A DNA stretch of 64,000 nucleotides from Gammaproteobacteria bacterium (GCA_026708965.1 JAPOTY010000034.1:15323-79322); one strand, 5' to 3'. Positions 5,532-59,022 are shown, counted from the stretch's first letter. Made by a program: numbers and translations. The notes: generated by a model from the sequence alone, not told the origin.

Positions 5532-7570
5532 GCCAGCCTCCTCTCCACCAGCGTCAGCACGTCGTAGAGCGCCACCGCCTTATCCTCCTGGTTGACGATC
5601 TCCACGTCCCACACCACCACGCCAACGGCGCGGTCCTCGTCCGGGCGCTTTTCCTTGGCGATCTTCCTCTTGGCCGTCAGCCGCGCCTGGATGGTGTCGC
5701 CGATGCCCACCGGCTCGATGAAGCGCAGATTCTCCAGCCCGTAATTGGCCAGCACCGGCCCCGGCGCCGGATCGACGAACAGGCCGGCCGCCGCCGATAC
5801 CACGAAGTAGCCGTGCGCCACCCGCTTGCCGAACAGCGAATCCTTGGCCGCCTCCTCGTCGAAATGGGCGTAGAAATGATCGCCCGAAACGCAGCCGAAA
5901 TTCACGATATCGGCCTCGGTCACGGTGCGCCGGTGGGTGGTGAGGCGGTCGCCCACCTCGAGATCCTCGAAATGCTTGCGAAACGGATGGATGTCCGTTT
6001 CCCGGACCCGGGCGCCGGCCTGGTACTCGCGGGTAATGGCCGCCAGCGAGCGGGGCGAGCCTTGCACCGAGGTGCGCTGCATATAGTGCTTGACCGCCCG
6101 CGCTCCGCCCAGTTCCTCGCCGCCGCCGGCCCGGCCCGGCCCGCCGTGAACCAGCAGCGGCAGCGGCGAGCCGTGGCCGGTGGATTCCTTCGCGCAATCG
6201 CGGTTGAGCACCAGCATGCGGCCGTGCCAGGCCGCGGCGCCGAGCACGATCCGCGCCGCCTCGCCGTCGTCGCTGGTCACCACCGAGCCCACCAGGCTGC
6301 CGCGGCCCTTGGCGGCCAGATCAATCGCCTCGTCCGTGCCGCGGTACGGCATCAGCGTGGCCACCGGCCCGAAGGCTTCGGTCGAATGCGGCGCCTCCGT
6401 TGCGAGCGGGTCGGCGCAATAAAGCAGCGTGGGCGGATAGAAGGCATCGCGCACGGCGCGCTCGCCGACCAGCTCGAAATCGCCGCCGCCCAGCAGGATT
6501 TCGCAACTGCCGGCCAGCGCTTCCACGCTGGCCTGCACCTCGGCCTTCTGCGCGGCGCCCAGCAGCGGCCCCATGCGCACGCCCTCCGCCGCCGGATCGC
6601 CAACCGCCATTTTCGACAGCCGCGCCTTAAGGGCATCGGCCACCGGCTGCAGCTGCTGCTCCGGCACCAAGATGCGGCGGATCGCGGTGCATTTCTGCCC
6701 CGCTTTGGAGGTCATCTCGCGGACCACCTCCTTTATAAACAAGCCGAATTCCGGATCGTCCGCCTTCACTGATTCGCCCAGAACGCAGCAGTTCAGCGAG
6801 TCCGCTTCCTGATTGAACGGAATGCTGCGGGCGATGATGCCGGGGTGCGCCTTGAGCTTGCGGCCGGTTTCGGCCGAGCCGGTGAACGTGACCACATCCT
6901 GCTCGCGGAGATGGTCGAGGAGATTGCCGGCGCGGCCGCAAATGAGTTGCAGCGCGCCTTCCGGCAGCAGCCCGGAGGCGATGATTTGGCGCGCCATCGC
7001 CTCGGCCAGGTAGGCCGAGCCGGTGGCGGGCTTGACCACTGCCGGCACGCCCGCGATCAGGCTGGGGGCGATCTTCTCCAGCATTCCCCAGCAGGGGAAG
7101 TTGAACGCGTTGATATGCACCGACACGCCGCGCTTCGGGGTGAGGATATGGCGGGCCGAAAAGGTATTGCCGGCCGATAGCCGCTCGGGGCCGCCTTCCA
7201 CGATGAACGGCTCGTTCGGAAACTCGCGCCGGGCGATGCTGGAAAAACTGAAAAGGGTGCCGATTCCGCCCTCGATATCCACCCAGCTATCGGCCCGGGT
7301 GGCGCCCGTGCAGGCCGAGATCCGGTAGAGCTCGTCCTTGCGCTCAAGCAGGTGCTTGGCCAGCGCCTTGAGCGCCAAGGCGCGCTCGTGGAGGGTTAGG
7401 GCGCGCAGCGCGGGGCCGCCTTCGGAGCGCCCGTAATCCAGCGCCCGCGGCAAATCCACGCCCTCGCTGCTCGTGGAAGTGATACGTTCTCCGGTTACAG
7501 AATGGAAAATATGAGTTGTTTCTTCCGACCCCGGAATCCAATGGCCATAGACATAACTTTTTGTTTTCAT
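5528..7570 (-). CDS. paaZ: Bifunctional oxepin-CoA hydrolase / 3-oxo-5,6-dehydrosuberyl-CoA semialdehyde dehydrogenase PaaZ
   Basis: 680 aa. N-terminal ALDH domain ([27 protein letters not shown]) plus a C-terminal MaoC/hot-dog hydratase domain. Confidence 0.9.
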
Positions 7571-41806: not shown

Positions 41807-44632
41807 GTGGCGCGTATGACAGAGCAAGCGCTGGCGGATCGCTATAGTCCGACCGATATCGAGGCACGGGCCCACCGGCGGTGGGAGCAGGCTGGCTACT
41901 TCGCGCCGAGCGGCGACGGGGCGCCGTTCTGCATCGTGATTCCCCCGCCCAACGTGACCGGCAGCCTGCATATGGGCCACGCCTTCCAGGACACGGTGAT
42001 GGACGCGCTCACGCGCTACCACCGCATGCGCGGCCGCTGCGCGCTGTGGCAGCCCGGCGTGGACCATGCCGGCATCGCCACGCAGATGGTGGTGGAGCGG
42101 CAGCTTGAGGCCGAGGGCCTGAGCCGGCGCGAACTAGGCCGCGAGGAGTTCGTGCGACGGGTGTGGGCGTGGAAGGAGTCGTCCGGCGGGCGAATCGGCG
42201 GCCAGCTTAGGCGCTTGGGAGCCTCGGCGGATTTCTCGCGGGACTGCTTCACGCTCGATGAGGCGCGCAGCCGGGCGGTGATGGAGGTTTTCGTGCGCCT
42301 CCATGAGGAGGGATTGATCTATCGCGGAAAGCGGCTGGTGAATTGGGATCCCGTTCTGCAAACGGCCCTTTCCGATCTCGAAGTGGCATCCAGCGAGGAG
42401 GACGGGCATCTGTGGCGGCTGCGCTACCCGATGGCGGACGGCAAGGGGACGGTGGAGGTCGATACGACCCGCCCGGAAACCATGCTCGGCGACACCGGCG
42501 TGGCGGTCCATCCCGGCGACGAGCGCTACCGGAAACTGATCGGCCGCATGGTGCGCCTGCCCCTGACGGGACGGCAAATCCCGGTGGTGGCCGACGAGGC
42601 CGTGGACCCGAAATTCGGTACGGGGTGCGTGAAAGTCACCCCGGCGCACGATTTCACCGACTACGAAATCGGCCGGCGCCATGATCTTCCGGCCATCAAT
42701 ATCCTCACTGCGCGGGCCTTTCTGAACGATAGCGTCCCGCAGGCGTTCGCCGGGCTGGAGCGTTTTGCCGCCCGCAAGGCCGTGGTGCAGGCGCTCACCG
42801 ACGAGGGCGTGCTGGCGGGCGTGCGCAAGCACCGCCATGTCGTGCCTAGGGGCGACCGCTCGCAGGCGGTGCTTGAGCCGTTCCTCACCGATCAGTGGTT
42901 CGTGCGCGCCGCGCCGCTGGCCGAACCGGCCATCAAGGCAGTGGAGGACGGGCGGGTGCGCTTCGTGCCCGAAAACTGGGCGGCGACCTATTTCGAGTGG
43001 ATGCGCAATATCGAGGACTGGTGCATCAGCCGCCAGCTGTGGTGGGGGCATCGGATTCCGGCATGGCACGGCGATGACGGCGCGGTGTTCGTGGGCCGCA
43101 GCGAGGAAGAGCTGCGGCGCCAGCACGGCTTGCCGGATGATTTGGTCCTGCGGCGCGACGACGATGTGCTGGACACTTGGTTCTCATCGGCACTGTGGCC
43201 TTTCTCCACCCTGGGATGGCCGGAGAAAACGCCGGAGCTTGAGCGCTTCTATCCGGGCACGGTGCTGGTGACCGGCTTCGATATCCTGTTCTTCTGGGTG
43301 GCCCGCATGGTGATGATGGGCCTTAAGTTCATGGGCGATGTGCCGTTCAGGGAGGTGTACGTGCATGGCCTGATCCGCGATCACGAAGGCAACAAGATGT
43401 CGAAATCGCGGGGCAATGTGATCGATCCGCTGGACTTGATCGACGGCGTGGACCCGGACGCGCTGGTGGCCAAGCGCACCGCCGGGCTGATGCAGCCGCA
43501 AAGCGCGCCCGGCATCGAGCGCGCCACGCGCGAGCAGTTCCCCAAAGGCATCCCCGCCTTCGGCGCCGATGCCGTGCGCTTCAGTTTCGCCGCCATGGCC
43601 AGCACCGGCCAGGACATCCGCTACGACCTGGAGCGCACCGCCGGCTACCGCAATTTCTGCACCAAGCTCTGGAATGCCGCGCGTTTCGTGCTCATGCAGC
43701 ACACGGCCGGAAGCGAAGATGCCGCGCGCTCCGGGAAAGCGGCGGGGAGCGGCGCGGCCAGCAACGGAGACAGCGCGGCAGCCATCGTGAACCGCTGGAT
43801 CATTTCCCGCCTAGGCGCGGCCCTGCGCGCCACCAGCGACGCGATCGACGGCTACCGCCTGGATCTGGCAAGCAGCGCGATGTACGACTTCGTGTGGCGT
43901 GAATACTGCGACTGGCACTTGGAACTGGCCAAGCACATCCTGAGCGCCGGCAAGGCCGAGGAGGCCGCCGCGACACGAACCACGCTCGTGCAGGTTCTGG
44001 AGGTGATCCTGCGCGCCCTCCATCCCATCATGCCGTTCATCACCGAGGCGCTCTGGCAACGCATCGCTCCCCTTGCCGGCGCATCGGGCGACAGCATCAT
44101 GATTGCTTCCTGGCCGCAGGCAGACGAATTCCCCGAAGACGCGGACGCCGAGGCCGAAATCAAATGGCTGCAAGGCTTCGTGCTCGGCATTCGGCAAATT
44201 CGCGGCGAGCTGAATCTGCCTCCGGGCCGCAGGCTGGATATGCTGGCGCAGGGCGCCACCGATAAGGACCGGGCGCGGATGAGCTCTCTTTCCGGTCTGC
44301 TCCACCCCATGGCCGGCATCAACGAACTCTTGGAACTGGCGCCGGATGCCGAACCGCCGCCCGCCGCCTCGGCCCTGCACGGCGGGCTGCGCCTGCTCAC
44401 GCCGCTGGCCGGCATCATTGACCCGGCCGCCGAGCGGACAAGGCTTGAGAAACTTCGCGCCCAAGCCGAAAAAGCCTTGCAGGCGACCGAAAAGAAGCTG
44501 GCCAATCCGCAGTTCCTTGCCAAGGCGCCGCCCGAAGTGGTGCAAACCGCGCAAGACCGCCGCGCCGCCTTGGCCCGCGATCTCGAAAGCCTCGCCGAAC
44601 AGATTAAACGGCTCGACAACATGCAAAATTAG
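41807..44632 (+). CDS. valS: Valine-tRNA ligase
   Basis: 941 aa. [15 protein letters not shown], the KMSKS motif and a C-terminal coiled coil. The start is GTG 41807 or ATG 41816. Confidence 0.95.
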
Positions 44633-44744
44633 CGCCTGTTGGCTCCAGCCGGCGCGCCTGTCCGCCTTTGCTCCGTCCTCTTTTCCGAGGGAGACGCATG
44701 AACCCATCCATGGGGCTTGGCGGCGGCCAAGAGGCAGGCTTTCA

Positions 44745-45038
44745 TTAGCCTGCACTCGTGCTTGTCTTGGCTAGTATCTGGTCCAGAATCTCTTCTGACT
44801 TCATCGGATTTGGTTGCATTGCCTCGGCCCAAGGGCGACCTGGATGAATCGTGTCCCATGGTGATCGAGCCTGATTGTAGCGATTCTTTCCCGGATCGTT
44901 GTTGCCGAACCCCTCTACCACTTTATTCCAAATGGGAGAAAACCGATCAATGAGCAAAGATTCCCCAAGTGGTATCCAGATATCGTCCACTACAAGAAAT
45001 CGGCACCAAAAATCTTCCAATTTCAAGTTCTTGGCCAC
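44745..45038 (-). pseudogene. C-terminal half of an Eco29kI-like (GIY-YIG class) restriction endonuclease; N-terminal catalytic half missing
   Basis: LEDFWCRFLVVDDIWIPLGESLLIDRFSPIWNKVVEGFGNNDPGKNRYNQARSPWDTIHPGRPWA matches my recollection of the Eco29kI-family C-terminal region. An in-frame TAG lies ~19 codons upstream and the dcm stop is only 23 bp away. There is therefore no room for the ~100-aa GIY-YIG part. Confidence 0.5.
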
Positions 45039-45061
45039 CTCTATTGAGGAGGCATGCTTTT

Positions 45062-46258
45062 TCAGATTTCGAGGCTTGAGAGCGCATATTCTATGCAGCT
45101 ATTGAGGGCCTCCCCAAGCACATGCGCCAGTGTCACTGGCACGGCATTGCCGATTTGGCGCATGGTTTCAGTCCATGAGCCAGGGAATAGATAGTCATCG
45201 GGGAATGTTTGCAGGCGAGCAGCCTCCCGAACACTAAAATAACGAAACGTGCCGTCGGTGCGAGCGAGCATGTTCTCGCCTCCCGGAACGCCGTGGTCTC
45301 CGGCCTTTAGCACTTTCGCAGGTTCATCATAGCCGCTGCCAGTATGGCCAGGATAAGGTCGAGCGCCCGGCTGATACCGGTGATTTGGTATTGATTCGCA
45401 GTCTGTCGGGGAGTGCTCGGGATCGGCCAGCCCAACTAATGCGTCCCGTACGGTTTGCCAAGGCTGCAAGGGTGGCGGGAAATCAAAGCCGCGACAGCGT
45501 TCAACGCGCCGGTGCGCCCCGCTCGGCATAGGCGGTCGATTGCGTTTGGCAATGCGATGGCGGTCCCAATAAGCACCTGTCACCCATTGTTCCCAGAGAA
45601 GGGAATCTAACGAGTGTGTGGGCTTCGGGAACTTCCACTCAACATTCAGGTCGGACCGTAATCCAACCATGATCATCCGATGCCTTTTCTGCGGAACGCC
45701 AAAGTCGGCAGCATTGAGGACACCGATATCCACTCGGTAAGAGAGACCCGCGAATCTGGCGCTAGAAGCGTGGTGCTGGGCCAGTCTTGCCGCATGGTCA
45801 ATCCAGCTTTTACCTTCCTTTGCTATCAGCCCAGGAAATGTCAATTGATCTCGAATGTACTCCAGGTAGCGTGAGAAGGTGGGGCGCCGCAGGCCTTGCA
45901 CATTCTCGAAAATGAAAGCTTTCGGGGCTAGTTCGCGGATTGCGCGGATTGCCTCCGGGAACATATCGCGTTCGTCCAAGTGGCCATGATGTTTACCACC
46001 TAGAGAAAATGGCTGGCAGGGAGGCCCGCCGGAAACCAGATCCATTCCAGCCCCAAGGGGCTCATAGTTCACCTCTCTCACATCGCATTCACGGATTGGC
46101 CAGCCTTCAACGGCTGAGTGGCTCAAAGCTTGGTTCATCCGAAGCGTTTCACAAGCGTGGATGTCTCTATCGGTTACGAGTTCGTGACGGAATCCCGCAC
46201 GCGCAAGACCCATGCCAAGACCGCCGGCACCGGCGAAAAGCTCAACCGACCTAAGCAT
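45062..46258 (-). CDS. dcm: DNA (cytosine-5)-methyltransferase
   Basis: All hallmark motifs are present: ELFAGAGG (I), GGPPCQPFS (IV), ENV (VI), QKRHR (VIII) and GNAVPV (X). The start was taken at ATG 46258 (MLRSVELFAGAGG). The region is AT-richer. Confidence 0.9.
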   Translation of the reverse strand: MLRSVELFAGAGGLGMGLARAGFRHELVTDRDIHACETLRMNQALSHSAVEGWPIRECDVREVNYEPLGAGMDLVSGGPPCQPFSLGGKHHGHLDERDMFPEAIRAIRELAPKAFIFENVQGLRRPTFSRYLEYIRDQLTFPGLIAKEGKSWIDHAARLAQHHASSARFAGLSYRVDIGVLNAADFGVPQKRHRMIMVGLRSDLNVEWKFPKPTHSLDSLLWEQWVTGAYWDRHRIAKRNRPPMPSGAHRRVERCRGFDFPPPLQPWQTVRDALVGLADPEHSPTDCESIPNHRYQPGARPYPGHTGSGYDEPAKVLKAGDHGVPGGENMLARTDGTFRYFSVREAARLQTFPDDYLFPGSWTETMRQIGNAVPVTLAHVLGEALNSCIEYALSSLEI

Positions 46259-46685
46259 GATGGCTATCCAGGGAATCTTTAACGGGCTTTGGTTCGGGTT
46301 GATTGAGCTTGTCCCGCTGCCGCTTGCCTTGCAGCTTCGGCAGCCAGAATTCAAGCCGGGATCTCAGTAGCCGAACCATGCTACAGCTTTCGTGGCGATG
46401 CTAGAAATACCAAGATACGGGACATCCGCACACTACGCCGCAATTGTGTGAGGGTATCAGCCACCGATGGAAGGTCGTGTCAATTGCATACCCCGCAGCG
46501 CGGCGGATAGCATCCTGAGTTGATAGGGGAATATACCATCGCGATGGCCGTAAACCTTAACGGGCAACAAGATTCGTGCTTCGGTTTTTCGGGGCGCTAG
46601 CGTTCCTCAAGACGGCGGGGGCCGCTTCGCTGCTTGCGGGTAGTACACTTGAGGCGGTTTAGCGGGTGGCTCGCGGGAGCAGGCT

Positions 46686-48818: not shown

Positions 48819-50447
48819 TTGGGACAGCACGCTAGCAACCCCGCAGTCTTCAAGCTGGCGATCGCCGCGCTCGGCGGCCAGGGAGGCGGCGTGCTCACCC
48901 AGTGGCTGCTGCGGGCGGCCGAGTCCAGCGGCTTCATCGCCCAATCCACCTCGGTGCCAGGCGTGGCCCAGCGCACCGGCGCCACCCTCTACTACCTGGA
49001 GTTCTTCCCGCGCGCCGCCGCGCAAGCCGCCGCCGCCGAGCCGGTGCTGGCGCTGATGCCCAATCCCGGCGATGTGGACCTGGTGGTGGCCTCGGAACTG
49101 ATGGAGGCCGGCCGCGCCATTCAGCGCGGGCTGGTGACCCGCGACCGCACCACGCTGGTCGTTTCCACCCACCGCGTTTATACGATCGGAGAAAAATCCG
49201 CGCTGGGCGACGGCCTAGCCGATAGCGAAACGGTCATGCAGGTGGCGCGGGCCACGGCCAAGCAGCTGGTGGCGCTGGATATGGAGGCGCTGGCGCAAGC
49301 GCACAACAGCGTGATCAGTTCGGTCGTGCTGGGCGCCTTGGCGGGTTCCGGCGCCCTGCCCTTTTCGGCGCAATCCTGCGAAGAGGCCATTCGGGCCAGC
49401 GGCCGGGCCGTCACGAGAAACCTGGCCGCCTTCGAGGCCGGCAAGGCGCGGGCGGCGGCGGAAGCAGGCGCAAACGGCGCGGCGCAACGCGGCGGCGCGG
49501 TTCCGCCGGAAGCGAACGCAAGCGCCGATACGCAGCGCAGCAGCGGCAATCACAGCGCGGTTCGCCCCGATGCCGGCGCAGCCTTGCTCGACCCGCCTCC
49601 CGCTCCCGCCAATCCCCGCGCCAAGGCCTTGATGGAGCGGATCGCGACCGAATTTCCGGACGGCTGCGGCAACCTGCTCGGCATTGGCGCGCATCGCCTG
49701 GTCGATTACCACAACCACGCCTACGCCGCACTCTACCTCGACCGGCTGCGGCCCATCCTGAGACAGGACAGCGAGGCGCGAGGCTACGCCTTGCTTGCCG
49801 AAACCGCCCGCGGCCTGGCGCTGTGGATGAGCTACGAGGACACCGCCCGGGTGGCCGACTTGAAGACCCGCGCGGCGCGCTTTGCTCGGGTGGGCGCGGA
49901 GATGCGGCCGCAGCAGGGCCAAGTGATGCGGATCGTCGATTACCTGGCCCCGCGCGCCGAGGAAATAGGCGGCAGCCTGCCGGCATGGCTGGGCGCTCCG
50001 CTGCTGAGGTGGAAATGCACCCGCAAGCTGCTGAGCGCTTTCACCGGGGGAAAACGGATCGCCACCGACCGTGTCCGGGGCTATCTTCTCATGCGCGCCA
50101 TGGCCCGCACCCGGGCATGGCGGCTAAGCACGCTGCGCCACCGCGAGGAGGACGAGCGGATCCGGAACTGGCTGGCGACGCTGGCCGAGCTGGCCCCCGG
50201 CAATTACGATCTGGCCGTGGAGTTCGCCGCCTGCCAGACGCTGGTGAAGGGTTACGGCGAAACATTCGAGCGCGGCTTGAGCCGCTACCAAGCGGTGAAG
50301 GATGCGCTGCCCGCGCTGCAAAATCGACCGGAGCCCGCCGCAGCCGTTCGCGAGCTTCGCGCGGCGGCGCTGGCCGACGAGCCGGGTGAAGCCTTCAATG
50401 CGGCGCTGGCCCGCCTGTGCGAAAATCGACCGGGCAATGTTTCCTAA
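48819..50447 (+). CDS. iorB: Indolepyruvate oxidoreductase beta subunit family protein with a long C-terminal extension
   Basis: IAALGGQGGGVLTQWLLRAAESSGFIAQSTSVPGVAQRTGAT. It lies immediately downstream of iorA. The TTG start is uncertain. Confidence 0.8.
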   Translation: MGQHASNPAVFKLAIAALGGQGGGVLTQWLLRAAESSGFIAQSTSVPGVAQRTGATLYYLEFFPRAAAQAAAAEPVLALMPNPGDVDLVVASELMEAGRAIQRGLVTRDRTTLVVSTHRVYTIGEKSALGDGLADSETVMQVARATAKQLVALDMEALAQAHNSVISSVVLGALAGSGALPFSAQSCEEAIRASGRAVTRNLAAFEAGKARAAAEAGANGAAQRGGAVPPEANASADTQRSSGNHSAVRPDAGAALLDPPPAPANPRAKALMERIATEFPDGCGNLLGIGAHRLVDYHNHAYAALYLDRLRPILRQDSEARGYALLAETARGLALWMSYEDTARVADLKTRAARFARVGAEMRPQQGQVMRIVDYLAPRAEEIGGSLPAWLGAPLLRWKCTRKLLSAFTGGKRIATDRVRGYLLMRAMARTRAWRLSTLRHREEDERIRNWLATLAELAPGNYDLAVEFAACQTLVKGYGETFERGLSRYQAVKDALPALQNRPEPAAAVRELRAAALADEPGEAFNAALARLCENRPGNVS

Positions 50448-50567
50448 AACGCAAATTGAACGCCTTGGAATGGAGGACATCCCTCCTTTCGAGAAGGCGA
50501 AGCACCTTCCCTCCCTGAACCGCCACTCGCACACAGGGCGCAAACTGCCAGCCGCAGGAGCCGCGCA

Positions 50568-51101
50568 ATGAAGCCATTGATCGCCAAACTGCTCAACGCC
50601 GGTTCCCGGCCCCTGAACCTGCTGGGCGCGGCGGCCTGCTCGCTCCTGTTCGGCTACGCGCTGTTCGCCGAGCATGTCCAAGGCTACGAGCCCTGCCCGC
50701 TGTGCATCCTGCAACGCGTTGCGGTGATCGGGCTGGGCTTGGCCTTTCTGCTCGCCGCACTGCACCACCCCGCAGGCCGCTTCCGGCACACCTACTCCGC
50801 GCTGTGCGGCGCCATCGGCCTTGCGGGCGGCGGCGTGGCGGCGCGCCACCTGTGGATACAAGCGCAACCTGAAGGCAGCGTGCCGCCCTGCGGCGCCAGC
50901 TTCGATTTCATTCTAGACAACTTCGGCATCGTCACCGCCGTCCGCGAAGCGCTCACCGCCTCCGGCGAATGCGCCGAAGTCGATTGGTCGCTATTCGGCC
51001 TAGCCATGCCCGCCTGGGTGCTGCTGGCGTTCCTAGCGCTCACCGCCTGGGCCGTCTGGACCAACTCCTTCGCCCGCCAGCGACCCGCGCCTCTAGCCTA
51101 G
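50568..51101 (+). CDS. dsbB: Disulfide bond formation protein B
   Basis: 177 aa and four TM segments. The first Cys pair is CPLCILQR and the second periplasmic Cys pair is PPCGAS...SGEC. Confidence 0.85.
   Translation: MKPLIAKLLNAGSRPLNLLGAAACSLLFGYALFAEHVQGYEPCPLCILQRVAVIGLGLAFLLAALHHPAGRFRHTYSALCGAIGLAGGGVAARHLWIQAQPEGSVPPCGASFDFILDNFGIVTAVREALTASGECAEVDWSLFGLAMPAWVLLAFLALTAWAVWTNSFARQRPAPLA
50888..51083 (+). repeat. Direct repeat copy 1 (3' end of intact dsbB)
   Basis: 196 nt with no indels. I counted 11 mismatches by hand against 52689-52884 (about 94% identity). Weaker similarity continues to about 51135 / 52925. Confidence 0.9.
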
Positions 51102-51119
51102 CCCCTCAGGACCGCAACC

Positions 51120-51615
51120 TTGACCAGCGAACAGTTCTTCAAAAGCCCCATCCTCAATTCGCCCTACGAATGCCCCAGCCGTCACTGGGAACTGGACGCG
51201 GACGGCCAACCGACCGGCCTCGTTGCCGAAAAGCGCCGGCAGGCGGATTTCATCTCCGCAGTGCCCCAGCCGCAACAGCTAGTGTGCGGCGAACATGCAG
51301 GGCCGACTGCGCATGGACGATGATGTCGGCGTTTCCACTTCTCAACAGAGTTACGCCCGCACGGCGGCGATAATCAATCGGGTTCGCCAAGAAGTGGATA
51401 CCTCGCGCGGCCCGGAGGATCCTCTGAGCTTGATTTTGGAAATCAAGGGCTTGCGGCAAGAGGACGCGCGGGCGAAAAAGGATGCCATGGAAACCTGCTG
51501 GATACCCGGCGTGAACAACAACGGCCAATACGGCCGCTGGGCCCTCGCCGAATTCACCGATGCCAGCACCATGCAATCCGACTTCAACCGCCTGATCCAG
51601 CAAAGCCAAGCGTAG
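51120..51615 (+). pseudogene. Internal-deletion remnant of a large restriction/helicase (res-type) subunit: N-terminal ~53 aa joined, out of frame, to the C-terminal ~90 aa
   Basis: The N-terminal part is MTSEQFFKSPILNSPYECPSRHWELDADGQPTGLVAEKRRQADFISAVPQP. The C-terminal part is PLSLILEIKGLRQEDARAKKDAMETCWIPGVNNNGQYGRWALAEFTD. These are the characteristic termini of ~900-1000-aa res-type proteins as I recall them. The two frames differ. Confidence 0.6.
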
Positions 51616-51651
51616 AATTACCTTTTCGATACTCAAGCAGGGCGAGAACGA

Positions 51652-51804
51652 ATGGAGCGCACAGCAATCATTGAGCAGAGCGGAGACCGGCGGATCGGCT
51701 GGATCAAGGAATTTTCCCGCGCCAATTGCCCGGAGCACAGCCTTGAAGAGCTGTGCGTGAGTCTCACCGAAGCCCTTCAGGACATACTGGAGTTCCACGG
51801 CTAA
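51652..51804 (+). CDS. Small HicB-like (UPF0150) antitoxin-type protein, orphan
   Basis: Own translation, 50 aa and below the track cutoff: MERTAIIEQSGDRRIGWIKEFSRANCPEHSLEELCVSLTEALQDILEFHG. Confidence 0.45.
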   Translation: MERTAIIEQSGDRRIGWIKEFSRANCPEHSLEELCVSLTEALQDILEFHG

Positions 51805-51828
51805 AAACAACTTGAAGGAGATACGAAC

Positions 51829-52047
51829 ATGACCGTATCACTGCCATTACAGAAAATGACGCTTGAAGAAAAGCTACAGGTTATGGAAGCCATTTGGGAT
51901 GATCTGTCCAAGCACGCGACAGAAGCCAATCCCCCCGCCTGGCATGGAGAACTGCTCATAGAACGTGAGGCGGCCATAGCCCGCGGAGAGGATAAATTCG
52001 AGGATTGGGAAGCCGCCAGAAAGAGGATAGAAGAGGAAATCGGGTGA
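51829..52047 (+). CDS. Addiction-module antitoxin (Unstab_antitox / TIGR02574-like)
   Basis: 72 aa. MTLEEKLQVMEAIWDDL....PAWHGELLIEREAAIARGEDKFEDWEAARKRI. Confidence 0.65.
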   Translation: MTVSLPLQKMTLEEKLQVMEAIWDDLSKHATEANPPAWHGELLIEREAAIARGEDKFEDWEAARKRIEEEIG

Positions 52048-52347
52048 GACGGATCCGAATTCTCGAATCTGCGCGTAGAGACCTAGCGGCTGGGTTACCG
52101 GTTCTATGAGGCGCAAGCCAACGGAATTGGGCGTTATTTTCTGGACAGCCTGTACTCGGATATCGAATCGTTGCGAATCAGCGCGGGCATCCATGTGATT
52201 CGCTTTGGTCACTTCCATCGGCTTTTGTCACGGCGTTTCCCGTGGGCGGTGTACTACAAGATCAAAGACGGTGAAATTCGCATACACGCTATACTCGACA
52301 CTCGCCAACACCCGAACCGGGCGAATGACCGCCTAGGCCGCTCATAA
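52044..52347 (+). pseudogene. ParE/RelE-type toxin gene with a +1 frameshift (extra T near 52095)
   Basis: GTG 52044 (GTGA overlap with the antitoxin stop) gives VRRIRILESARRDLAAG, then a stop at 52107. The other frame continues YRFYEAQANGIGRYFLDSLYSDIESLRISAGIHVIRFGHFHRLLSRRFPWAVYYKIKDGEIRIHAILDTRQHP. Confidence 0.7.
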
Positions 52348-52382
52348 GCCACTTTGTTGAGCGCGACGAAGAGAATCATTCA

Positions 52383-52680
52383 GTGACGCGATCACGAGGC
52401 AATCGAAAACAAATCGAAGCGCTGCGGCACAGCGAGGCATCGCGCAAGAATATTCCCACGGCGGAATAGGAATCCGTGATGGGCAGAAAGCAGCGCTCGC
52501 CCTTGCAGGTGGCGTGCGAGCGCCGCAACCCTGATCTTGACCCGCAGCTGGTGTGGCGCGGCAAGGATATGCAGGACCGATCCGAACTCACGGTGGAGGC
52601 GCCGCCTTTGTTCATACAGGAGAAGGTGCATCCGAAGGCGCTGATCGACGACCTAGCGAGGCGCAGCCGCCGGACAGCGT
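52383..52680 (+). pseudogene. N-terminal stub of the partner DNA methyltransferase (mod-type), with an in-frame TAG at 52467 and truncated at the dsbB repeat
   Basis: VTRSRGNRKQIEALRHSEASRKNIPTAE*ESVMGRKQRSPLQVACERRNPDLDPQLVWRGKDMQDRSELTVEAPPLFIQEKVHPKALIDDL. This is the N-terminal pattern of methyltransferases that accompany the res-type family above. Confidence 0.55.
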
Positions 52681-52688
52681 ACCCCCCC

Positions 52689-52884
52689 CTGCGGCGCCAG
52701 CTTCGACTTCATCCTCGACAACTTCAGCTTCGTCACCGCCGTTCGCGAAGCGCTCACCGCCTCCGGCGAATGCGCCGAAATCGATTGGTCGCTATTCGGC
52801 CTGGCCATGCCCGCCTGGGTGCTGCTGGCGCTCCTAGCGCTCACTGCCTAGGCCGTCTGGACCAACTCCTTCGCCCGCCAGCGA
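52689..52884 (+). repeat. Direct repeat copy 2: displaced, non-functional copy of the dsbB 3' end
   Basis: In the dsbB frame it encodes ...CGASFDFILDNFSFVTAVREALTASGECAEIDWSLFGLAMPAWVLLALLALTA*. A TGG-to-TAG change truncates it, and there is no 5' part of dsbB. Confidence 0.9.
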
Positions 52885-53002
52885 ACATCGCCGCCTCGAC
52901 CAACCACTTGACCAAGCAGGGGCATCGGTCCTATTCTCGCTGTCGGCCCGATATCTGAAGCATTGCAGCTTGAGATTCCGATCGGCCAAGGAGCGCTGGA
53001 AC

Positions 53003-53245
53003 ATGACGCGGCATATAAAAATCGGCGAGGCAAAGACGCACCTCTCTGCGCTATTGGCTAAGGTTGAAGCCGGCGAAGATCTGATTATTTGCCGAGGCGA
53101 AACGCCGGTTGCTCATGTCACACGGATCGACAAGGCGCGCGAGCATGCCGAGCTTTGCGAAACGTTGCGCCGGGAGCGGGCGAAACAGCGAGCCGTCACC
53201 ACCTGCGAAATCTTGTCCTGGAGACACGAGGGACACTCTCGCTGA
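53003..53245 (+). CDS. vapB: Phd/YefM-type (VapB) antitoxin
   Basis: AAGGAG RBS 9 nt upstream of ATG 53003. MTRHIKIGEAKTHLSALLAKVEAGEDLIICRGETPVAHV. Confidence 0.75.
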   Translation: MTRHIKIGEAKTHLSALLAKVEAGEDLIICRGETPVAHVTRIDKAREHAELCETLRRERAKQRAVTTCEILSWRHEGHSR

Positions 53246-53652
53246 TGCCGTTCGTGCCCGACGCGTCAATCGCCGCCGCTTGGGTATTGCCCGACGAAGA
53301 AGCGGAGGCAGCCGAATCCGCACTGGATCGCCTAGCCGCCGAAACCGCAATAGTCCCTGCCATGTTCTGGGACGAGTTGCGGAACCTCTTGTTGTCGGCC
53401 GAACGCCGCGGCCGCATCGAGGCCGGCCACGCCGAAAGCTCTCTGGCGCGGCTGCGCCGCCTTCCCATTCGCTGCCCGGGGGATGCCCACGACCATTCCA
53501 TCCTGGAGTTGGCCCGCCGTCACCGATTAACCGCCTACGACTCCAGCTATCTGGCGCTCGCGGTTCGTGAAGGCTGCGCGTTGGCAAGCCTCGATCAGCG
53601 CCTGAACGAGGCGGCTGCCGCGGAAGGCGTGGCATTGACGATGCATCAATAG
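53245..53652 (+). CDS. vapC: PIN-domain toxin VapC (apparently intact)
   Basis: The ATG overlaps the vapB stop (TGATG). MPFVPDASIAAAWVL...LTAYDSSYLALAVREGCALASLDQRL shows the acidic PIN residues. Confidence 0.75.
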   Translation: MPFVPDASIAAAWVLPDEEAEAAESALDRLAAETAIVPAMFWDELRNLLLSAERRGRIEAGHAESSLARLRRLPIRCPGDAHDHSILELARRHRLTAYDSSYLALAVREGCALASLDQRLNEAAAAEGVALTMHQ

Positions 53653-53728
53653 CAGCCCAAGCCGCAAGCTCTTAGTTGCCTATGCAAACTTCGCAGAACC
53701 CAGAGATCACTGGCAGGTTCAATTGACG

Positions 53729-56725
53729 ATGGCCCAACACGGCCGAAGCGGCGAGGAGGCGTTTAATCAAGCCTTGGGGAAGGCGCTCCGTACAACGACA
53801 GCGCGCTGGCAGGCCATGCCGGGAGCCATTAAGATCGAGCAAACAGGAACGCTTGCTGGCGCGGCAGGCAAACGCCCCGACATCCTGATTCTAGATAGTT
53901 CGTCGCCGCCGGTTGTCATTGAGTCTTCGTTCAGCCAGACGGATGCGGACAAGGACGCGCTTGCGAGGTTGGGCGAAAAGATCGCCAGCACCGGACAAGG
54001 TATTACGATGGCGGCCTCCGTTGCAATTGCGGCGGAATGGCGCACGTTCGACTTGGAGGAAATGACTAAAAGGCTCACAGAAAGCGCGCCGCTCGACTAT
54101 GCGCTTCATCAACAGCCCCAGAATAACCCGGATTCCCACCGACGCTGGCCTTGCAAGGGATTCATCACTGGAACCGTTTACGATTTCGCCCAATTTATCT
54201 CGGCAGCGTTGCCCAAAGAGGATATCGCGCATGTCGGTGAGTCGGTGGCCTTGCAAGTGGATCAAGCCGCAGAGCGGCTTGATCAGCATCTTTCGGTAGA
54301 GCAGCAGCAGCGCATCGCGGAGCTTTCGCAGCAGCGAACAGCTTTCAAAGGTTTGCGCACCACGATGGTCCTTTGGCTGAACGCATTGCTTACCCAGCAG
54401 CGGCTTCATACGCAAGGCGTCGGGGGCATACCGCCTTTGGATTTCACGAGTAATGCGCCGCCTGTGCCTAGCGATCAAGCAAAAATCTGGCGCAGTATCC
54501 TTAAACTGAATTGGCACATGATTTTCGCGCCGGCGGTGACGGTTCTGGAAGAAGCCGGCAATTTCAGTCCCGCCGCCACAGCATCAGCGTTACAGCTGCT
54601 TATCCGTGCTTCAGAGCAAATTGAAATCGCACAGCTCGGAACGCAAATCAACATCGGCGCTGAATTGTTCCCCAAGCTCAGTGAAGACCGAAAGGAGGCC
54701 GCTGCGTTTTATACGCAGCCTTCCACTGCGGAACTGCTGGCTGCCTTGGCGATTCGCCCCGATGATGCGGATGACTGGGCAAGCAAGGACTTTTTCACCC
54801 GGCATAAACTCGCTGATCTGGCATGCGGAACAGGCACTTTGCTTCGCGCTGGCTACCGGAGGATTTGCGCGTTTCACGAACGGGGCGGAGGAACGCTAGA
54901 GACGCTCCAAAAACTGCACTCAGACGCGATGGAGCAAGGACTAATCGGCACCGACATCAGCCCTGTCGCTGCTCATCTCACCGCCTCTTCGCTTGCAGCT
55001 ATCGGTTCCGGCAAACCCTACGGAGAAACGGAAATCGGCTGGCTGAGAGTTGGAGGGGGCTGGGGAAACACCGGCGCATTGGAGTACTTGGCGAGCTCGT
55101 CACAGACTGATTTGCTGGCGGATATGGCCGGACGCTCCCATGGGCGCCAAGAAAGAGGAAACTCGGTGAAAATCATTGATTGGTCCGCCGATTGGGTGTT
55201 GATGAACCCTCCCTACTCCCGAACTCGCGGCGGCCAGAGCGCATTCGACGTTGCAGGCCTGCAAGAGGCGGAACGCAAAGCTTGCCAAAAGCGCTGGGGA
55301 GCGCTGATCTCCGGCGCCGAAGCCAATAAGACCGCTGGCATGGCAGCTTCCTTTCTAGCCTTGGCGGAGCGCAAGGTAAAGCGGGGAGGACGCATCGGTT
55401 TCGTGTTGCCCCTTACAGCGGCGCTGGCGGACTCTTGGACTGTCAGCCGACAGATGGTCGAGCGATGGTTCACGGACATTACCGCAGTAGCAGTAGCAGC
55501 AGGTCAGGCCTTGGGAGACGAGGCGCTTTCAGCCGATACCGGCATGGAGGAAATGCTGCTCACGGCCCAGCGGCGCAATGACTCGGAAATGCTGGAAAAG
55601 CCCGCCCCGATCCGTTGCGTGGTGCTTCACCGAGCACCTATGCGGGTAGGAGAAGCCGGAGAAATCGCGAGAGCCATCGATGAGGCATCGGCAGGTTTGG
55701 CAACCGAAGGACTCAGCCGCCCGATACGCGTCGGCGATGATGAAATTGGTCAAGTGGCTCTGTTCCGAACGAATGGCAAAGGCCGTCCATGGGCGCCTCT
55801 TGGGGTGGTTCACACGGATCTGGCCTTGGCTGCGGATAAGCTGGCTCAGGGCCTGCTGGGACATCTGTGCCAGGATGCTCCTCTTGGCCCGAAGATGACG
55901 ACGATAGGAAAGCTGTTTGACGTAGGGCCTACGCATCACCTCATCGGGCATCTGAAAGGCAAAAAGGCAATAGGCGCGTTTGAATTGCATCCCGTAAAAG
56001 ACGCGAACGATGCAATAGGCCGCAGCAGGTTTCTGTGGGCGGCCGATGCCAAAAACCAGCAAAGTCTAATGACACGGCCCACACACAAAGGCATCGACCT
56101 TCCAACATCGGATAACCAAAAAGACATGCGGGCCAAAAGCAGCACGCTTTTTTATGCGCGCAATATGCGCTGGACATCGCAGAAGCTGCTCGCGGCCACA
56201 ACCGAACACGATGCGATGGGCGGGAGAGCTTGGGCAGCGCTCCGGCACGACAACAGCAATATCCGCAAGTCGTTCGCTTTGTGGGCCAACTCGACCCTAG
56301 GCATGATTGTCCACTGGACGCAGGGGCAACGCACCCATGCGGGACGATCCACAACGCAAATGGGCGCTATCAGAAAAATCCCATGTCCGGATTTCCCCGC
56401 CCTCGAAGATTCTGTTATAGCTCTGGCTGCGAAGCGGTTCGATGAATTGGCCGGCGAGACGCTGCGGCCTGCCTGCCAAGCGCATGCCGACTCAGTGCGC
56501 ATCCGCATTGATCAGGCAGTGCTGGAAATGTTTGCATTCGCGCGGAACATCGGCTCCTCTGTGGAAGACAGCCGCTCGGATTACAACAGCGATAGAACCA
56601 AGCAGTCGACAACCGAACACGAGCAAGTCATCGCTATGTTGCGGCAGTTATGGTGCGCCGAACCATCGGTGCATGGCTCGAACCAAGCTGCGCTGATGCT
56701 CCTGCAAAGCCACGATAGCTCATGA
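53729..56725 (+). CDS. Single-chain nuclease-like / gamma-class N6-adenine DNA methyltransferase / specificity-domain protein (Type IIG/IIL-like R-M enzyme candidate)
   Basis: The N-terminus has KRPDILILDSSSPPVVIESSF (D53...E67-x-S, PD-(D/E)xK-like). MTase motifs are AFYTQPSTAELLA (X-like), DLACGTGTLL (motif I, aa ~365), IGTDISP, LMNPPYSR (motif IV, aa ~495) and GGRIGFVLP. The ~400-aa C-terminal region has LWANSTLGMIVHW, like TaqI/Eco57I-type specificity domains. The start is ATG 53729 or TTG 53723. Confidence 0.7.
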   Translation: MAQHGRSGEEAFNQALGKALRTTTARWQAMPGAIKIEQTGTLAGAAGKRPDILILDSSSPPVVIESSFSQTDADKDALARLGEKIASTGQGITMAASVAIAAEWRTFDLEEMTKRLTESAPLDYALHQQPQNNPDSHRRWPCKGFITGTVYDFAQFISAALPKEDIAHVGESVALQVDQAAERLDQHLSVEQQQRIAELSQQRTAFKGLRTTMVLWLNALLTQQRLHTQGVGGIPPLDFTSNAPPVPSDQAKIWRSILKLNWHMIFAPAVTVLEEAGNFSPAATASALQLLIRASEQIEIAQLGTQINIGAELFPKLSEDRKEAAAFYTQPSTAELLAALAIRPDDADDWASKDFFTRHKLADLACGTGTLLRAGYRRICAFHERGGGTLETLQKLHSDAMEQGLIGTDISPVAAHLTASSLAAIGSGKPYGETEIGWLRVGGGWGNTGALEYLASSSQTDLLADMAGRSHGRQERGNSVKIIDWSADWVLMNPPYSRTRGGQSAFDVAGLQEAERKACQKRWGALISGAEANKTAGMAASFLALAERKVKRGGRIGFVLPLTAALADSWTVSRQMVERWFTDITAVAVAAGQALGDEALSADTGMEEMLLTAQRRNDSEMLEKPAPIRCVVLHRAPMRVGEAGEIARAIDEASAGLATEGLSRPIRVGDDEIGQVALFRTNGKGRPWAPLGVVHTDLALAADKLAQGLLGHLCQDAPLGPKMTTIGKLFDVGPTHHLIGHLKGKKAIGAFELHPVKDANDAIGRSRFLWAADAKNQQSLMTRPTHKGIDLPTSDNQKDMRAKSSTLFYARNMRWTSQKLLAATTEHDAMGGRAWAALRHDNSNIRKSFALWANSTLGMIVHWTQGQRTHAGRSTTQMGAIRKIPCPDFPALEDSVIALAAKRFDELAGETLRPACQAHADSVRIRIDQAVLEMFAFARNIGSSVEDSRSDYNSDRTKQSTTEHEQVIAMLRQLWCAEPSVHGSNQAALMLLQSHDSS

Positions 56726-56756
56726 TGCGCACGCATCAACCCAAACACATAATCCC

Positions 56757-56830
56757 CAGAAAGAAATTGGGTGGGATGGATTCAAATTCTCCAGTCCGTG
56801 CGTAGAGATTCGGCAATTGGGCGCAAATAA
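56757..56830 (+). pseudogene. Short remnant paralogous to the antitoxin-3'-end / ParE-like-toxin-5'-end junction at 52030-52100
   Basis: By-eye alignment gives about 70% identity over ~65 nt. ...QKEIGW (stop changed to TGG) overlaps VGWIQILQSVRRDSAIGRK*, compared with VRRIRILESARRDLAAG in the other copy. Confidence 0.35.
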
Positions 56831-56914
56831 TCCCTGCAAGTGTGAGGGTTCAGACACATATGGGACTGTAGAGTGTCCGCTCACGGCGTATGCTGCGGTC
56901 GGTTGTGGTAAGCA

Positions 56915-57118
56915 ATGAAACTGAAGGTCGTCATCCATGATGCCGAGGAAGGCGGGTACTGGGCGGAAGTGCCTTCCATCCCAAGCTGCGCCACCGAAGG
57001 CGACAGTTTCGAGGAATTGCTAGCCAATCTCTACGAAGCAGTCGAAGCCTGCCTGTCCGTGGAAGTCAGTGAAATTTCTTCCAAGCCGCAGGCCAAGGTC
57101 ATTGAAATTGCCGTATGA
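56915..57118 (+). CDS. hicB: HicB-family antitoxin
   Basis: 67 aa. MKLKVVIHDAEEGGYWAEVPSIPSCATEGDSFEELLANLYEAVEACL. Confidence 0.75.
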   Translation: MKLKVVIHDAEEGGYWAEVPSIPSCATEGDSFEELLANLYEAVEACLSVEVSEISSKPQAKVIEIAV

Positions 57119-57285
57119 AGGCCATCAGCGGCAAGCGGTTGTGAAAACTGCTTGAATCGCGGGGCTGGCAGTTAATGCGCATCAGGCGCGTTGCGAATCC
57201 GGGCGGGAATCACAATCCGCCATGCCTTGCTCCTAAAATGACCGGTCATGCATGCTGGCCAGATGGAAACGATTACAGCATCTGA
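57115..57285 (+). pseudogene. hicA: hicA toxin gene with a premature TGA at codon 10 (57142) and a degenerate distal part
   Basis: The ATGA overlap with the hicB stop gives MKAISGKRL*KLLESRGWQLMRI.... The canonical sequence is ISGKELxKLLEKxGW..vRxxGSH, and the GSH(H) motif is not recognisable. Confidence 0.6.
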
Positions 57286-57373
57286 TTTGAAGGCCCGCTG
57301 CCTTGCCATCCTGGACCGTGTTCAGCGAACGGGCGGACGCAAATTCACCCGGAACGAAATGAATGAGCGCTGA
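57263..57373 (+). pseudogene. Fragment of a Phd/VapB-type antitoxin, followed (57363 to ~57440) by the first ~20 codons of a PIN toxin that run into the phrB start
   Basis: Own translation gives METITASDLKARCLAILDRVQRTGGRKF...*, then MSADFLGTNIFICLFDETDDRK... in a frame different from phrB. Confidence 0.4.
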
Positions 57374-57408
57374 TTTCCTCGGCACCAATATCTTCATTTG
57401 CCTGTTTG

Positions 57409-58893
57409 ATGAAACCGACGACCGCAAGAGAGGCATTGCCCGGCAGCGCCGCGCCGATTCTGGTTTGGTTTCGCCAGGATCTGCGGCTTGACGACAACCC
57501 GGCCTTCGCGGCGGCCGCGGCCACCGGACGGCCGATCATTCCCGTTTATATCCTCGACGACCGGATGCCCGGGCAATGGCGCCTCGGCGGCGCATCGCGC
57601 TGGTGGCTGCATCACAGCCTGTCTGCGCTGGGCGAAACGCTTGCCAAGCATGCCTTGGCGCTTGTGCTGCGCGCCGGAGAGGCGGCTGCGGTTTTGCCGG
57701 CGCTGGCGGAGGAAACAGGCGCCGGCGGCGTGTACTGGAACCGCTGCTACGAGCCGTACGCGGTGCGGCGCGATGCCGCTCTCAAATCCGCGCTGCTCGC
57801 CGCCGGCGTAGAAGCGCGCTCCTTCAACGCGGCACTGCTCGCGGAGCCGTGGGAAGCAAGCACGGTTTCCGGCGGCCCTTTCCGGGTGTACACGCCATTC
57901 CAAAAAGCGCTGCGCGCCCGGCTCGGAAATGATCCCCCCAAACCCTCCCACGCGCCCGCCAGCGCGGTAGCGCCGGAACGCTGGCCCGCAAGCGACAGGC
58001 TGGCGGATTGGAAGCTCCTGCCGGATAAGCCGGACTGGGCGGGCGGATTGAGGGCAACGTGGCAACCGGGCAGCAGCGCGGCTTCGTCCCGTCTCGCCGA
58101 ATTTCTCGACGGGCCGCTCCCGGATTATGCGGCCGACCGCGACCGCTGCGACCTCGCCGCCACTTCGGCGCTGTCCGCCCACCTGCACTGGGGCGAAATC
58201 GGCCCGCGCCGGATATGGCAGGCCGCGCATGAGCGCATGGCGCAGGACGGGGCAACAGAGCGGGGCGCGGATAAATTCCTCTCGGAACTGGTCTGGCGCG
58301 AGTTCGCGCATCACTTGCTGTTCCACTACCCCGATCTGCCGGAGGCCAACTGGCGCGCCCGCTTCGACGGCTTCCCATGGCGCAGCGACCCTGCGGGGCT
58401 CGCCGCGTGGCAGCGCGGGCTGACCGGCTATCCGATGGTTGACGCGGGCATGCGCCAGCTCTGGGAAACCGGCTGGATGCATAACCGGGCCCGGATGATC
58501 GCCGCCTCCTTCCTGGCCAAGCACCTGCTCATCCACTGGAGGCAAGGCGAAGCGTGGTTCTGGGACACCTTGGTGGATGCCGACCTCGCCAACAACGCGG
58601 CCGGCTGGCAATGGGTGGCCGGGTCAGGCGCCGACGCCGCGCCCTATTTCCGCATCTTCAACCCGGTGATCCAAGGCCGCAAGCACGATCCGGAGGGCGC
58701 CTATGCGCGCCGGTTCGTGCCGGAGCTGGCCAAGCTGCCGACGCGTTGGATCCATGCCCCCTGGGAAGCGCCCAAGGCAGTGCTGGCCGAATCCGGCGTG
58801 GCGCTGGGACGCACTTATCCGCATCCTATCGTTGACCACGCCATGGCGCGCGAGCGAGCGCTGGCCGCCTACAAGTCGATGCCGCAAGATTAG
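57409..58893 (+). CDS. phrB: Deoxyribodipyrimidine photolyase (CPD class I)
   Basis: ILVWFRQDLRLDDNPA and TGYPMVDAGMRQLWETGWMHNRARMIAASFL...WQWVAGSGADAAPYFRIFNP. Confidence 0.9.
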   Translation: MKPTTAREALPGSAAPILVWFRQDLRLDDNPAFAAAAATGRPIIPVYILDDRMPGQWRLGGASRWWLHHSLSALGETLAKHALALVLRAGEAAAVLPALAEETGAGGVYWNRCYEPYAVRRDAALKSALLAAGVEARSFNAALLAEPWEASTVSGGPFRVYTPFQKALRARLGNDPPKPSHAPASAVAPERWPASDRLADWKLLPDKPDWAGGLRATWQPGSSAASSRLAEFLDGPLPDYAADRDRCDLAATSALSAHLHWGEIGPRRIWQAAHERMAQDGATERGADKFLSELVWREFAHHLLFHYPDLPEANWRARFDGFPWRSDPAGLAAWQRGLTGYPMVDAGMRQLWETGWMHNRARMIAASFLAKHLLIHWRQGEAWFWDTLVDADLANNAAGWQWVAGSGADAAPYFRIFNPVIQGRKHDPEGAYARRFVPELAKLPTRWIHAPWEAPKAVLAESGVALGRTYPHPIVDHAMARERALAAYKSMPQD

Positions 58894-59022
58894 CGACAGC
58901 AGCGGCGGCAGCGGCGGCAGGCGGATCCTGCTCGGCCAAGCCGGAATTCGTCTTGATTCGGGCGCGGCTTCCGGGCATCGTGACGGGCCTGTCAATGTCA
59001 TGCCAATCGCGGAGGGAAGCAC

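Follow-up and report, generated by a model that had tools for sequence, protein, structure and literature searches.

The duplicated 3′ end of dsbB and an integrase-free hotspot for defense genes in sponge-type Gammaproteobacteria

When the 3′ end of a gene occurs twice on a bacterial chromosome, is the second copy the scar of a site-specific integration, or can it arise by another route? The question is raised by a 64,000-nucleotide stretch of DNA from a Gammaproteobacteria bacterium (GCA_026708965.1 JAPOTY010000034.1:15323-79322; hereafter, the window), in which the end of an intact dsbB gene (50568..51101; 177 aa; Pfam DsbB, E = 1.3e-39, and tail comparison) is repeated beyond the wreck of a restriction-modification (R-M) system. 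The original prediction read this repeat as the classic scar of site-specific integration. We instead find that the left edge of the second copy is a 9-10-nt microhomology in a truncated mod gene, and we posit, with a probability of roughly 0.6, that a piece of the same locus from a relative was taken up through a homologous exchange within dsbB on one side and an illegitimate join on the other. Positions below are those of the window, and all features are on the plus strand unless stated otherwise.

The repeat, its junction and the empty allele

Sequence comparison delimits copy 1 of the repeat (50860..51084), which lies within the functional dsbB, and copy 2 (52659..52885), a dsbB 3′ pseudogene fragment, both covering codons 98-172. 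A repeat search returned 50883-51091 against 52684-52892 (209 nt, 93%) at a period of 1801 bp, and a base-by-base comparison reproduced the 11 mismatches and the lack of indels that had been counted between 50888-51083 and 52689-52884. Against the closest relative, L017, the dsbB homology of copy 2 reaches left to 52659 (equivalent to 50860), so that the full repeat is about 226 nt; at this end a mutated 6-nt patch and a poly-C run hide the homology. The copies are 5.5% apart (94.5% identity), and their longest exact match is 36 nt. As had been described, copy 2 is missing the 5′ part of the gene (dsbB codons 1-97) and has TGG changed to TAG (51049/52850); this TAG at 52849-52851 reads TGG in six other strains, and the ancestral dsbB stop, TGA at 52909-52911, lies in the copy 2 tail. 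Copy 1 ends in a tail, RPAPLA-stop, that is unlike those of L017 and L092 (R[I/T]SPP..RPTT-stop).

The repeat is not an assembly artefact, given that at least 12 independent same-species assemblies, one of them a 2.54-Mb contig, share the two-copy structure and that the longest run common to the copies is 36 nt. The original prediction had itself raised collapsed or duplicated reads as an explanation, and the window apparently comes from a metagenome-assembled genome; nevertheless, we found no support for such an artefact, the assemblies were made with various assemblers from a variety of samples, 11-12 sites separate the copies, and each copy has polymorphisms private to it. We regard the chance of an artefact as negligible. 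Two further candidates were rejected. A simple tandem duplication disagrees with copy 2 leading to an L017/L092-type tail and Phd-PIN, with no second res, and with the difference between the two tails. The motif TTGACCA does follow both copies (51120-51126 and 52908-52914), as had been reported; as an att core it fails, since res starts with the TTG of the first occurrence, the second includes the ancestral dsbB stop (TGA), and a 7-mer is shared in 22% of shuffles. The weaker similarity claimed beyond the repeat is present in a gapped form, but it is marginal (p = 0.04).

The junction that begins copy 2 (52659..52668) consists of the microhomology AGGCGCAGC(C), which is covered by both the mod and the dsbB homologies. 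It is common to the mod codons R-R-S and to dsbB (CAG GCG CAG CC in L017 and some copy 1 alleles). The mod homology to L020, a relative with an intact mod, extends to 52667 (...D-L-A-R-R-S), and the copy 2 homology to the dsbB of L017 runs from 52659 in exact register, with AGGCGCAGCC 16 nt ahead of CAGCGT in both, so the two homologies overlap by 9-10 nt. The mod gene is thereby cut at codon 97 of ~920 and joined to dsbB codon 98. The junction is therefore a microhomology join in a broken gene and not an att core. The 3′ side of the junction has the mutated 6-nt patch and then a poly-C tract (52675-52682) of 7, 8 or 9 C among strains, a length variation that could be neutral slippage or homopolymer sequencing error. 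In strains that combine 7 C with TGG, a predicted ORF for a 143-aa mod′-′DsbB fusion is open to the ancestral dsbB stop.

An empty allele, with neither the insert nor the second copy, is found within the species. The contig L092 (JGI 3300009846) matches the window at 98.7-98.9% identity in each flank, encodes an identical PIN and carries a single 180-aa dsbB followed directly by Phd-PIN and a 998-aa gene; L115 (an independent Logan assembly of SRR10406111) is 100% identical to it over 6.3 kb. Between 50885 and 51002, the L092 dsbB has the copy 1 state wherever the two copies can be told apart (eight of eight sites); position 51030 is C, and beyond it the tail is of the copy 2 type, so that the exchange point lies within the last ~35-55 nt of the repeat. 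The empty allele differs from copy 1 at 1 of 201 sites and from copy 2 at 12 of 201, and the empty and occupied alleles are exactly one repeat unit plus the insert apart. The suggestion that the island is fixed thus falls, with this insertion being polymorphic within the species, and the repeats allow its loss or gain by RecA-type recombination.

The 1.8-kb wreck flanked by the copies contains a Type III-like res, a toxin-antitoxin (TA) remnant and a truncated mod, and 18 nt of the differing dsbB tail lie between copy 1 and the res region. The res remnant (51120..51615) belongs to a Type III-like restriction enzyme of the BPTD_3080 family (NCBIfam NF046055; blastx against the intact L020 and L116 res). 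It matches NF046055 at positions 1-46 and 914-969 of 970; relative to the 1020-aa L020 res, it retains aa 1-53, a frameshift, aa 56-100 and then aa ~944-1009, with ~2.5 kb deleted inside the gene. The mod remnant (52392..52667; blastx, 70% identity to L020 mod) comprises aa 6-97 of a ~920-aa Type III methyltransferase and has an in-frame TAG at 52467-52469; its intact L020 counterpart matches PADLOC MTase_III with 1391 bits. The presence of res/mod wreckage, originally proposed from the sequence, is hence borne out by NCBIfam at the res termini and by blastx at the mod start, and the R-M system of the insert is, as judged from these lesions, now dead.

Integrase-free turnover between dsbB and ADH

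Comparison with related sponge-type Gammaproteobacteria (Ca. Foliamicus relatives) shows the interval from the dsbB stop to the leader of a zinc-ADH gene to be an integrase-free hotspot at which these bacteria gather and exchange defense, TA and other cargo. In L008 and L010, the zinc-ADH lies 72 nt after dsbB (an empty site), and in L015 and L016 only 0.2-0.4 kb separate the two. The right edge is a conserved pre-ADH leader of ~70 nt (CTTGATTC...GGCATCGTG...GGGAG; 58952..59022), which nearly every lineage has ahead of the ADH start irrespective of the cargo (L008, L010, L014, L016-L019, L021). In empty sites it starts ~5 nt past the dsbB stop, which makes the hotspot a sharply defined point. 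Accordingly, the cargo of the window spans 51.1 to about 58.95 kb and includes phrB, in place of the island first drawn with its right boundary at 57.49 kb and phrB outside; phrB is also present in L017 but is not between dsbB and ADH in L008, L010, L015 and L016. Elsewhere, the cargo includes an amidase, GPP34-like genes, PIN/Phd modules, a cytochrome c/MFS/AMP-ligase block, HEC-01 (AAA_21/DUF4276), a TonB receptor block and R-M systems. The region is accessory, as had been stated, being empty or differently filled in related lineages. Its GC content is 0.52-0.61 over 51.2-57.4 kb versus 0.68-0.70 in the flanks.

The order in L017, the closest species (~94% nt identity), is dsbB-Phd-PIN-HicB-(fragments)-phrB-ADH, with cargo that matches the window's TA genes and phrB. 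Against it, the window has three extras: insertion 1, which is the repeat unit with res′/TA/mod′; insertion 2 (53670-56845); and a 154-nt versus 45-nt segment at 57172-57325. From copy 2 through its tail to Phd-PIN, the window aligns collinearly to L017 at 93.8%, in line with the earlier claim that one dsbB copy retains the original downstream context, and the spacing from dsbB to Phd-PIN is equal in L017 and L092. These comparisons, with the L008/L010 empty sites, show that the island was built in at least three layers, agreeing with the earlier alternative of successive insertions and deletions at one hotspot.

Two configurations in relatives bear on how such layers could be acquired. In L020 and L116, intact res and mod genes begin ~25 nt after the dsbB stop, showing that a chromosomal donor context of the required shape is real; neither is the donor, for their res and mod proteins are only 60-72% identical to the window remnants. 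L009, the only other lineage with a partial dsbB copy, has different boundaries and a duplicated ADH 5′ end: dsbB and GPP34 are followed by a fusion (11250-11506) of the pre-ADH leader and ADH codons 1-19 to a 115-nt dsbB 3′ fragment, and then by a different R-M pair (a PglX-like HTH-methyltransferase and a 324-aa ORF), the leader and the intact ADH. This structure is the mirror image of that in the window, with the ADH flank duplicated. The L009 fragments are 81-84% identical to L009's own genes and nearer to those of other lineages, and this divergence implies that the R-M cassette came with both flank-gene pieces from a relative's chromosome. Two independent events using different flank segments speak for homology-driven capture and against a dedicated att site.

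The original prediction also stated that no integrase, excisionase or transposase is present, and we recovered none in 50.9-57.5 kb and no integrase or transposase HMM (hidden Markov model) match in 50.5-59 kb; the sole tRNA in the window is at 37.1 kb. Neither the hotspot ORFs scanned in L007, L009, L011-L014, L018, L020 and L021 nor the called genes of L116 and L117 include a tyrosine or serine recombinase, and one rve gene in L021 is the only transposase-like match among the scanned relatives. Viral contigs yielded no dsbB relative; no phage DNA match was obtained, and plasmid matches were at the gene-family level only.

Core-gene-flanked hotspots and defense islands without mobility genes are a known class, which this locus resembles as a fixed point between conserved genes that is either empty or filled with differing R-M, TA, HEC-01 and metabolic cargo. 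To our knowledge, the dsbB-ADH hotspot of this clade has not been described.

Proposed homologous capture and its rivals

The fragment that we posit would have comprised the dsbB 3′ end, res, the TA module and the start of mod, all from a relative's version of the locus, and would have entered a genome in which dsbB was followed by Phd-PIN. One side would have been joined by homologous recombination within dsbB and the other by the illegitimate join at the 9-10-nt microhomology of mod codon 97 and dsbB codon 98. The latter could have been made by one-ended homologous repair, akin to homology-facilitated illegitimate recombination (HFIR), or through a circularized fragment that entered by a Campbell-type single crossover, and a site-specific recombinase would be unnecessary. 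HFIR (de Vries and Wackernagel 2002, PMC122324; Prudhomme et al. 2002), as summarized in PMC6382021, combines a homologous anchor with an illegitimate join at GC-rich microhomology of 3-10 bp. The window is comparable in having an anchor and one microhomology join, with foreign DNA from a putative related donor; the anchor would be the 226-nt homologous segment, whose copies are at between-species distance. Unlike in the experiments, which gave insertion-deletions, the join here lies upstream of the anchor end, and part of the anchor gene is therefore duplicated.

In favor of capture are the illegitimate junction, the res-mod context in L020 and L116, the L009 case, the lack of a tyrosine or serine recombinase in the ORFs scanned, the empty allele and the divergence of the copies. 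The anatomy, junction, empty allele, hotspot and L009 parallel are observed, and from them the recombination pathway and the xenologous origin of one copy are inferred.

Several points weigh against such a capture. As classic HFIR does not yield duplications, one-ended repair or a circular intermediate must be assumed, as must a DNA uptake route, whether competence or other, in these uncultivated bacteria. The deletion that cut mod short could also have removed an integrase. No donor lineage was recovered: identity to the best res relatives is at most 64%, with the frameshift-corrected res remnant returning nothing above ~57-64% from 5.8 billion proteins and the JGI metagenome contigs, and the protein database has no DsbB lineage closer than L017. 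Moreover, copy 1, copy 2 and L017 form a near-trichotomy, and either copy may be the native one.

The site patterns divide accordingly, with copies 1 and 2 agreeing against L017 at five sites, copy 1 and L017 against copy 2 at five, copy 2 and L017 against copy 1 at four, and all three differing at three. At 50912 and 50915, the ancestral bases (C, C) persist in copy 2 and have been replaced by T, A in copy 1 and L092. Flank trees and distances for L092 were inconsistent between the left and right flanks, and a divergence scan against L017 gave no clean step. Copy divergence is 5.5% versus a strain diversity of ~1%, and the 94.5% identity could reflect an old duplication or a xenologous copy; most of the differences (7 of 12) fall at third codon positions, a hint that the copies diverged largely as functional genes of two lineages. 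Should L092 always have lacked the insert, copy 2 would be foreign and entry would have been Campbell-type, by a fragment circularized at the mod/dsbB microhomology; should L092 instead derive from a deletion, either copy 2 would be native (one-ended, HFIR-like repair) or both copies would be (an old target duplication). The proposal that copy 1 is a replacement end and copy 2 the displaced original survives only under the secondary deletion, inasmuch as the empty allele carries the copy 1-type sequence.

Insertion of R-M genes with long target duplication is reportedly known from work by Nobusato et al. in 2000. Furuta, Abe and Kobayashi 2010 (PMC2853133) define the class by R and M homologs in an insert of <20 kb, a repeat of >30 bp that aligns to one copy in the empty genome and no other mobility genes; their cases cover Types I-IV and have repeats of 46-423 bp, and the mechanism is left unsettled. 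The window shares with it R and M homologs, both degraded here, between direct repeats of 209-226 nt, an insert of <20 kb with no other mobility genes in or beside it, and a single-copy alignment at the conspecific empty site (L092, L115). It departs from it in that the published repeats are near-identical to each other and to the target, whereas here the identity is 94.5% and only one copy matches the empty allele (1 versus 12 differences), as well as in the degraded state of the system and in a distal repeat that abuts truncated mod at a microhomology.

This resemblance makes an in situ target duplication worth weighing, although we consider it unlikely. Break repair or template switching would have inserted res-TA-mod′ and copied 226 nt of the resident dsbB a second time; neither copy would be foreign, with the 5.5% accrued afterward and copy 2 in neutral decay, and recombination between the repeats would later have removed the insert from L092. 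The locus shows all the operational features listed by Furuta et al. 2010 (PMC2853133), and at two neighboring positions (50993-50994) both copies have derived bases that differ from those of L017 and most outgroups. Decay is clear in copy 2 (Gly->Ser, the nonsense change polymorphic among strains and the poly-C variation), and the diversity of the insert between strain groups is core-like, so the insert is not young. Yet the distance between the copies is about that of each copy to another species, L017; third codon positions hold 7 of the 12 differences (p = 0.066 versus uniform); a derived A at 50979 is common to copy 2 and L017; and the L009 fragments are clearly xenologous. The duplication further needs L092 to be a deletion derivative, yet the L092 tail has private changes.

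A recombinase-bearing element that used the dsbB 3′ end as attB, brought a replacement end and later lost its recombinase by deletion is, in our estimate, still less probable. That deletion would have had to take out everything between mod codon 97 and the edge of the distal repeat. The geometry is that of e14 or phage 21 at icd, where an alternative icd 3′ end leaves the icdC pseudogene (Hill et al. 1989, PMC210168; PMC13626634): of the two 3′ ends of one protein gene, the proximal makes a complete, functional ORF, the distal is a 3′ pseudogene, and loss of the insert gives a chimeric gene. The occupied and empty alleles differing by one repeat unit and the low GC would fit as well. However, e14 has an integrase, an excisionase and a short defined core, in contrast to the illegitimate junction found here and the lack of any recombinase in the window or in the scanned hotspot ORFs of relatives; the model fails on these two counts, recombinase and att core, and on a third, a recurrent site, given that in L009 the duplicated flank is that of ADH. 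With its start at a microhomology in a broken gene, the distal repeat calls for an added deletion that ends within the repeat, which is ad hoc. The copy 1-type empty allele puts the crossover at the far right of the repeat, rendering 200 nt of element-borne dsbB useless as a replacement. Finally, an att site would be expected to be shorter and better matched than a repeat of 226 nt with 94% identity, and dsbB has no relatives on viral contigs.

With homologous capture as the preferred reading, the mechanism class is one already described for R-M systems, and the case adds an instance and detail rather than a new principle. It is nonetheless a clear example from nature, in which both alleles, occupied and empty, and the precise junction are available, of integrase-free gain and loss of defense genes at a core-gene-flanked hotspot in uncultivated sponge-type symbionts, and a warning that duplicated gene ends need not be att scars. 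A bolder proposal, which we hold to be doubtful, is that the insert was a self-contained, integrase-free mobile R-M unit, a chromosomal fragment that excised and circularized at the microhomology with a piece of dsbB as its homology arm. Such a unit would have entered a related genome by a Campbell-type crossover through the host RecA and could exit in the same way. If true, it would provide natural evidence for the virus-like life cycle of R-M complexes advanced by Kobayashi's group and explain the recombinase-free hopping of defense cassettes between lineages at core-gene-flanked hotspots.

Other cargo and neighboring variable sites

Within insertion 1, a 50-aa ORF of unknown function lies between res′ and the antitoxin gene (51652..51804), has no HMM match and is kept in all strains. 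It is followed by an apparently orphaned antitoxin gene of the Unstab_antitox family (51829..52047; 72 aa; Pfam PF09720, E = 6e-13) and, in the position of the partner toxin, by a frameshifted ORF (52044..52347; three-frame translation), a putative toxin whose reconstruction has no HMM match. Further downstream are an intact pair of a Phd-type antitoxin and a PIN (VapC-type) toxin (52970..53652; Pfam) and a HicB-like antitoxin gene (56915..57118; 67 aa; Pfam PF15919, E = 1.8e-6), after which putative toxin and antitoxin fragments shared with L017 continue up to 57491. Of the five TA loci proposed earlier, HMM support thus backs Unstab_antitox, Phd-PIN and HicB, but not the others: it was sought and not obtained for the ParE-like, HicA-like and VapB′C′-like fragments, and likewise for the 50-aa ORF and mod′. 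The cargo ends with the photolyase gene phrB (57406..58893; Pfam and synteny). Promoter and terminator scans stayed at chance level.

Insertion 2 (53670..56845), which is separate from insertion 1 and replaces 8 nt relative to L017, carries a 1000-aa Type IIG-like R-M gene (53723-56725). This ORF has no Pfam or NCBIfam match, and at least 615 full-length relatives, nearly all unnamed, are ~50-58% identical to it. It displays the motifs of a gamma-class N6-adenine methyltransferase, with motif I ahead of motif IV (NPPY), and its D365-x-x-C368-G-T-G-T-L-L and N495-P-P-Y498 are invariant in 43 homologs. An AlphaFold2 model (pLDDT 81.7, pTM 0.85) folds into a nuclease, a helical connector, a methyltransferase and a target recognition domain; its best PDB match is BpuSI (E = 2.8e-17), DrdV and PglX/BrxX match too, and PADLOC REase_MTase_IIG is hit with E = 1e-5. 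In the N-terminal domain, D53, E67 and S69 are invariant, but there is no lysine where PD-(D/E)xK expects one. We conclude from the motifs and the model that it probably represents an unannotated family of fused R-M enzymes, though it could be only a methyltransferase, as is PglX of BREX.

The right end of insertion 2 has a ~80-nt remnant (56755-56830) resembling the antitoxin-end/toxin-start region at 52036-52081; specifically, 52036-52081 and 56763-56808 are 80% identical copies of the end of an Unstab-type antitoxin and the start of its downstream ORF. This stub suggests that the 1000-aa gene once traveled with the same kind of TA module. A conserved module of PIN and the 1000-aa gene was considered and rejected, as the PIN genes beside the homologs are not orthologous. 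In an unrelated genome (L113), an antitoxin/PIN pair beside a homolog of the 1000-aa gene is partly duplicated as direct repeats of 78-83% identity (5251-5384 / 6244-6383 and 6112-6221 / 6853-6962).

Across all strain groups, and even in the strain without insertion 1, the 53.0-57.4 kb block (Phd-PIN, the 1000-aa gene and HicB) varies at only 0-3 positions per 500 nt. The flanks of the same strains show 7-17 differences per kb, and the flanking core genes reach 10-27 per 500 nt. This near-invariance suggests that the block has recently spread or swept through the species by recombination.

Upstream of iorA, at window ~44440-46260 (minus strand), is a second variable R-M slot. In the window and most strains it is occupied by a C5 DNA methylase (PF00145) and an Eco29kI-like endonuclease, and in L092 (150-2953) by an Eco57I-like N6 methyltransferase and a PLD-family protein; L017 fails to align across it. 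The 3′ half of iorB (window 49800-50590) is 77-87% identical to L017, compared with 93-96% in the neighboring genes, and the iorB-dsbB spacer (120 nt versus ~52 nt) is wholly unalignable with L017. The divergence of the iorB 3′ half may reflect low constraint or an older recombination tract.

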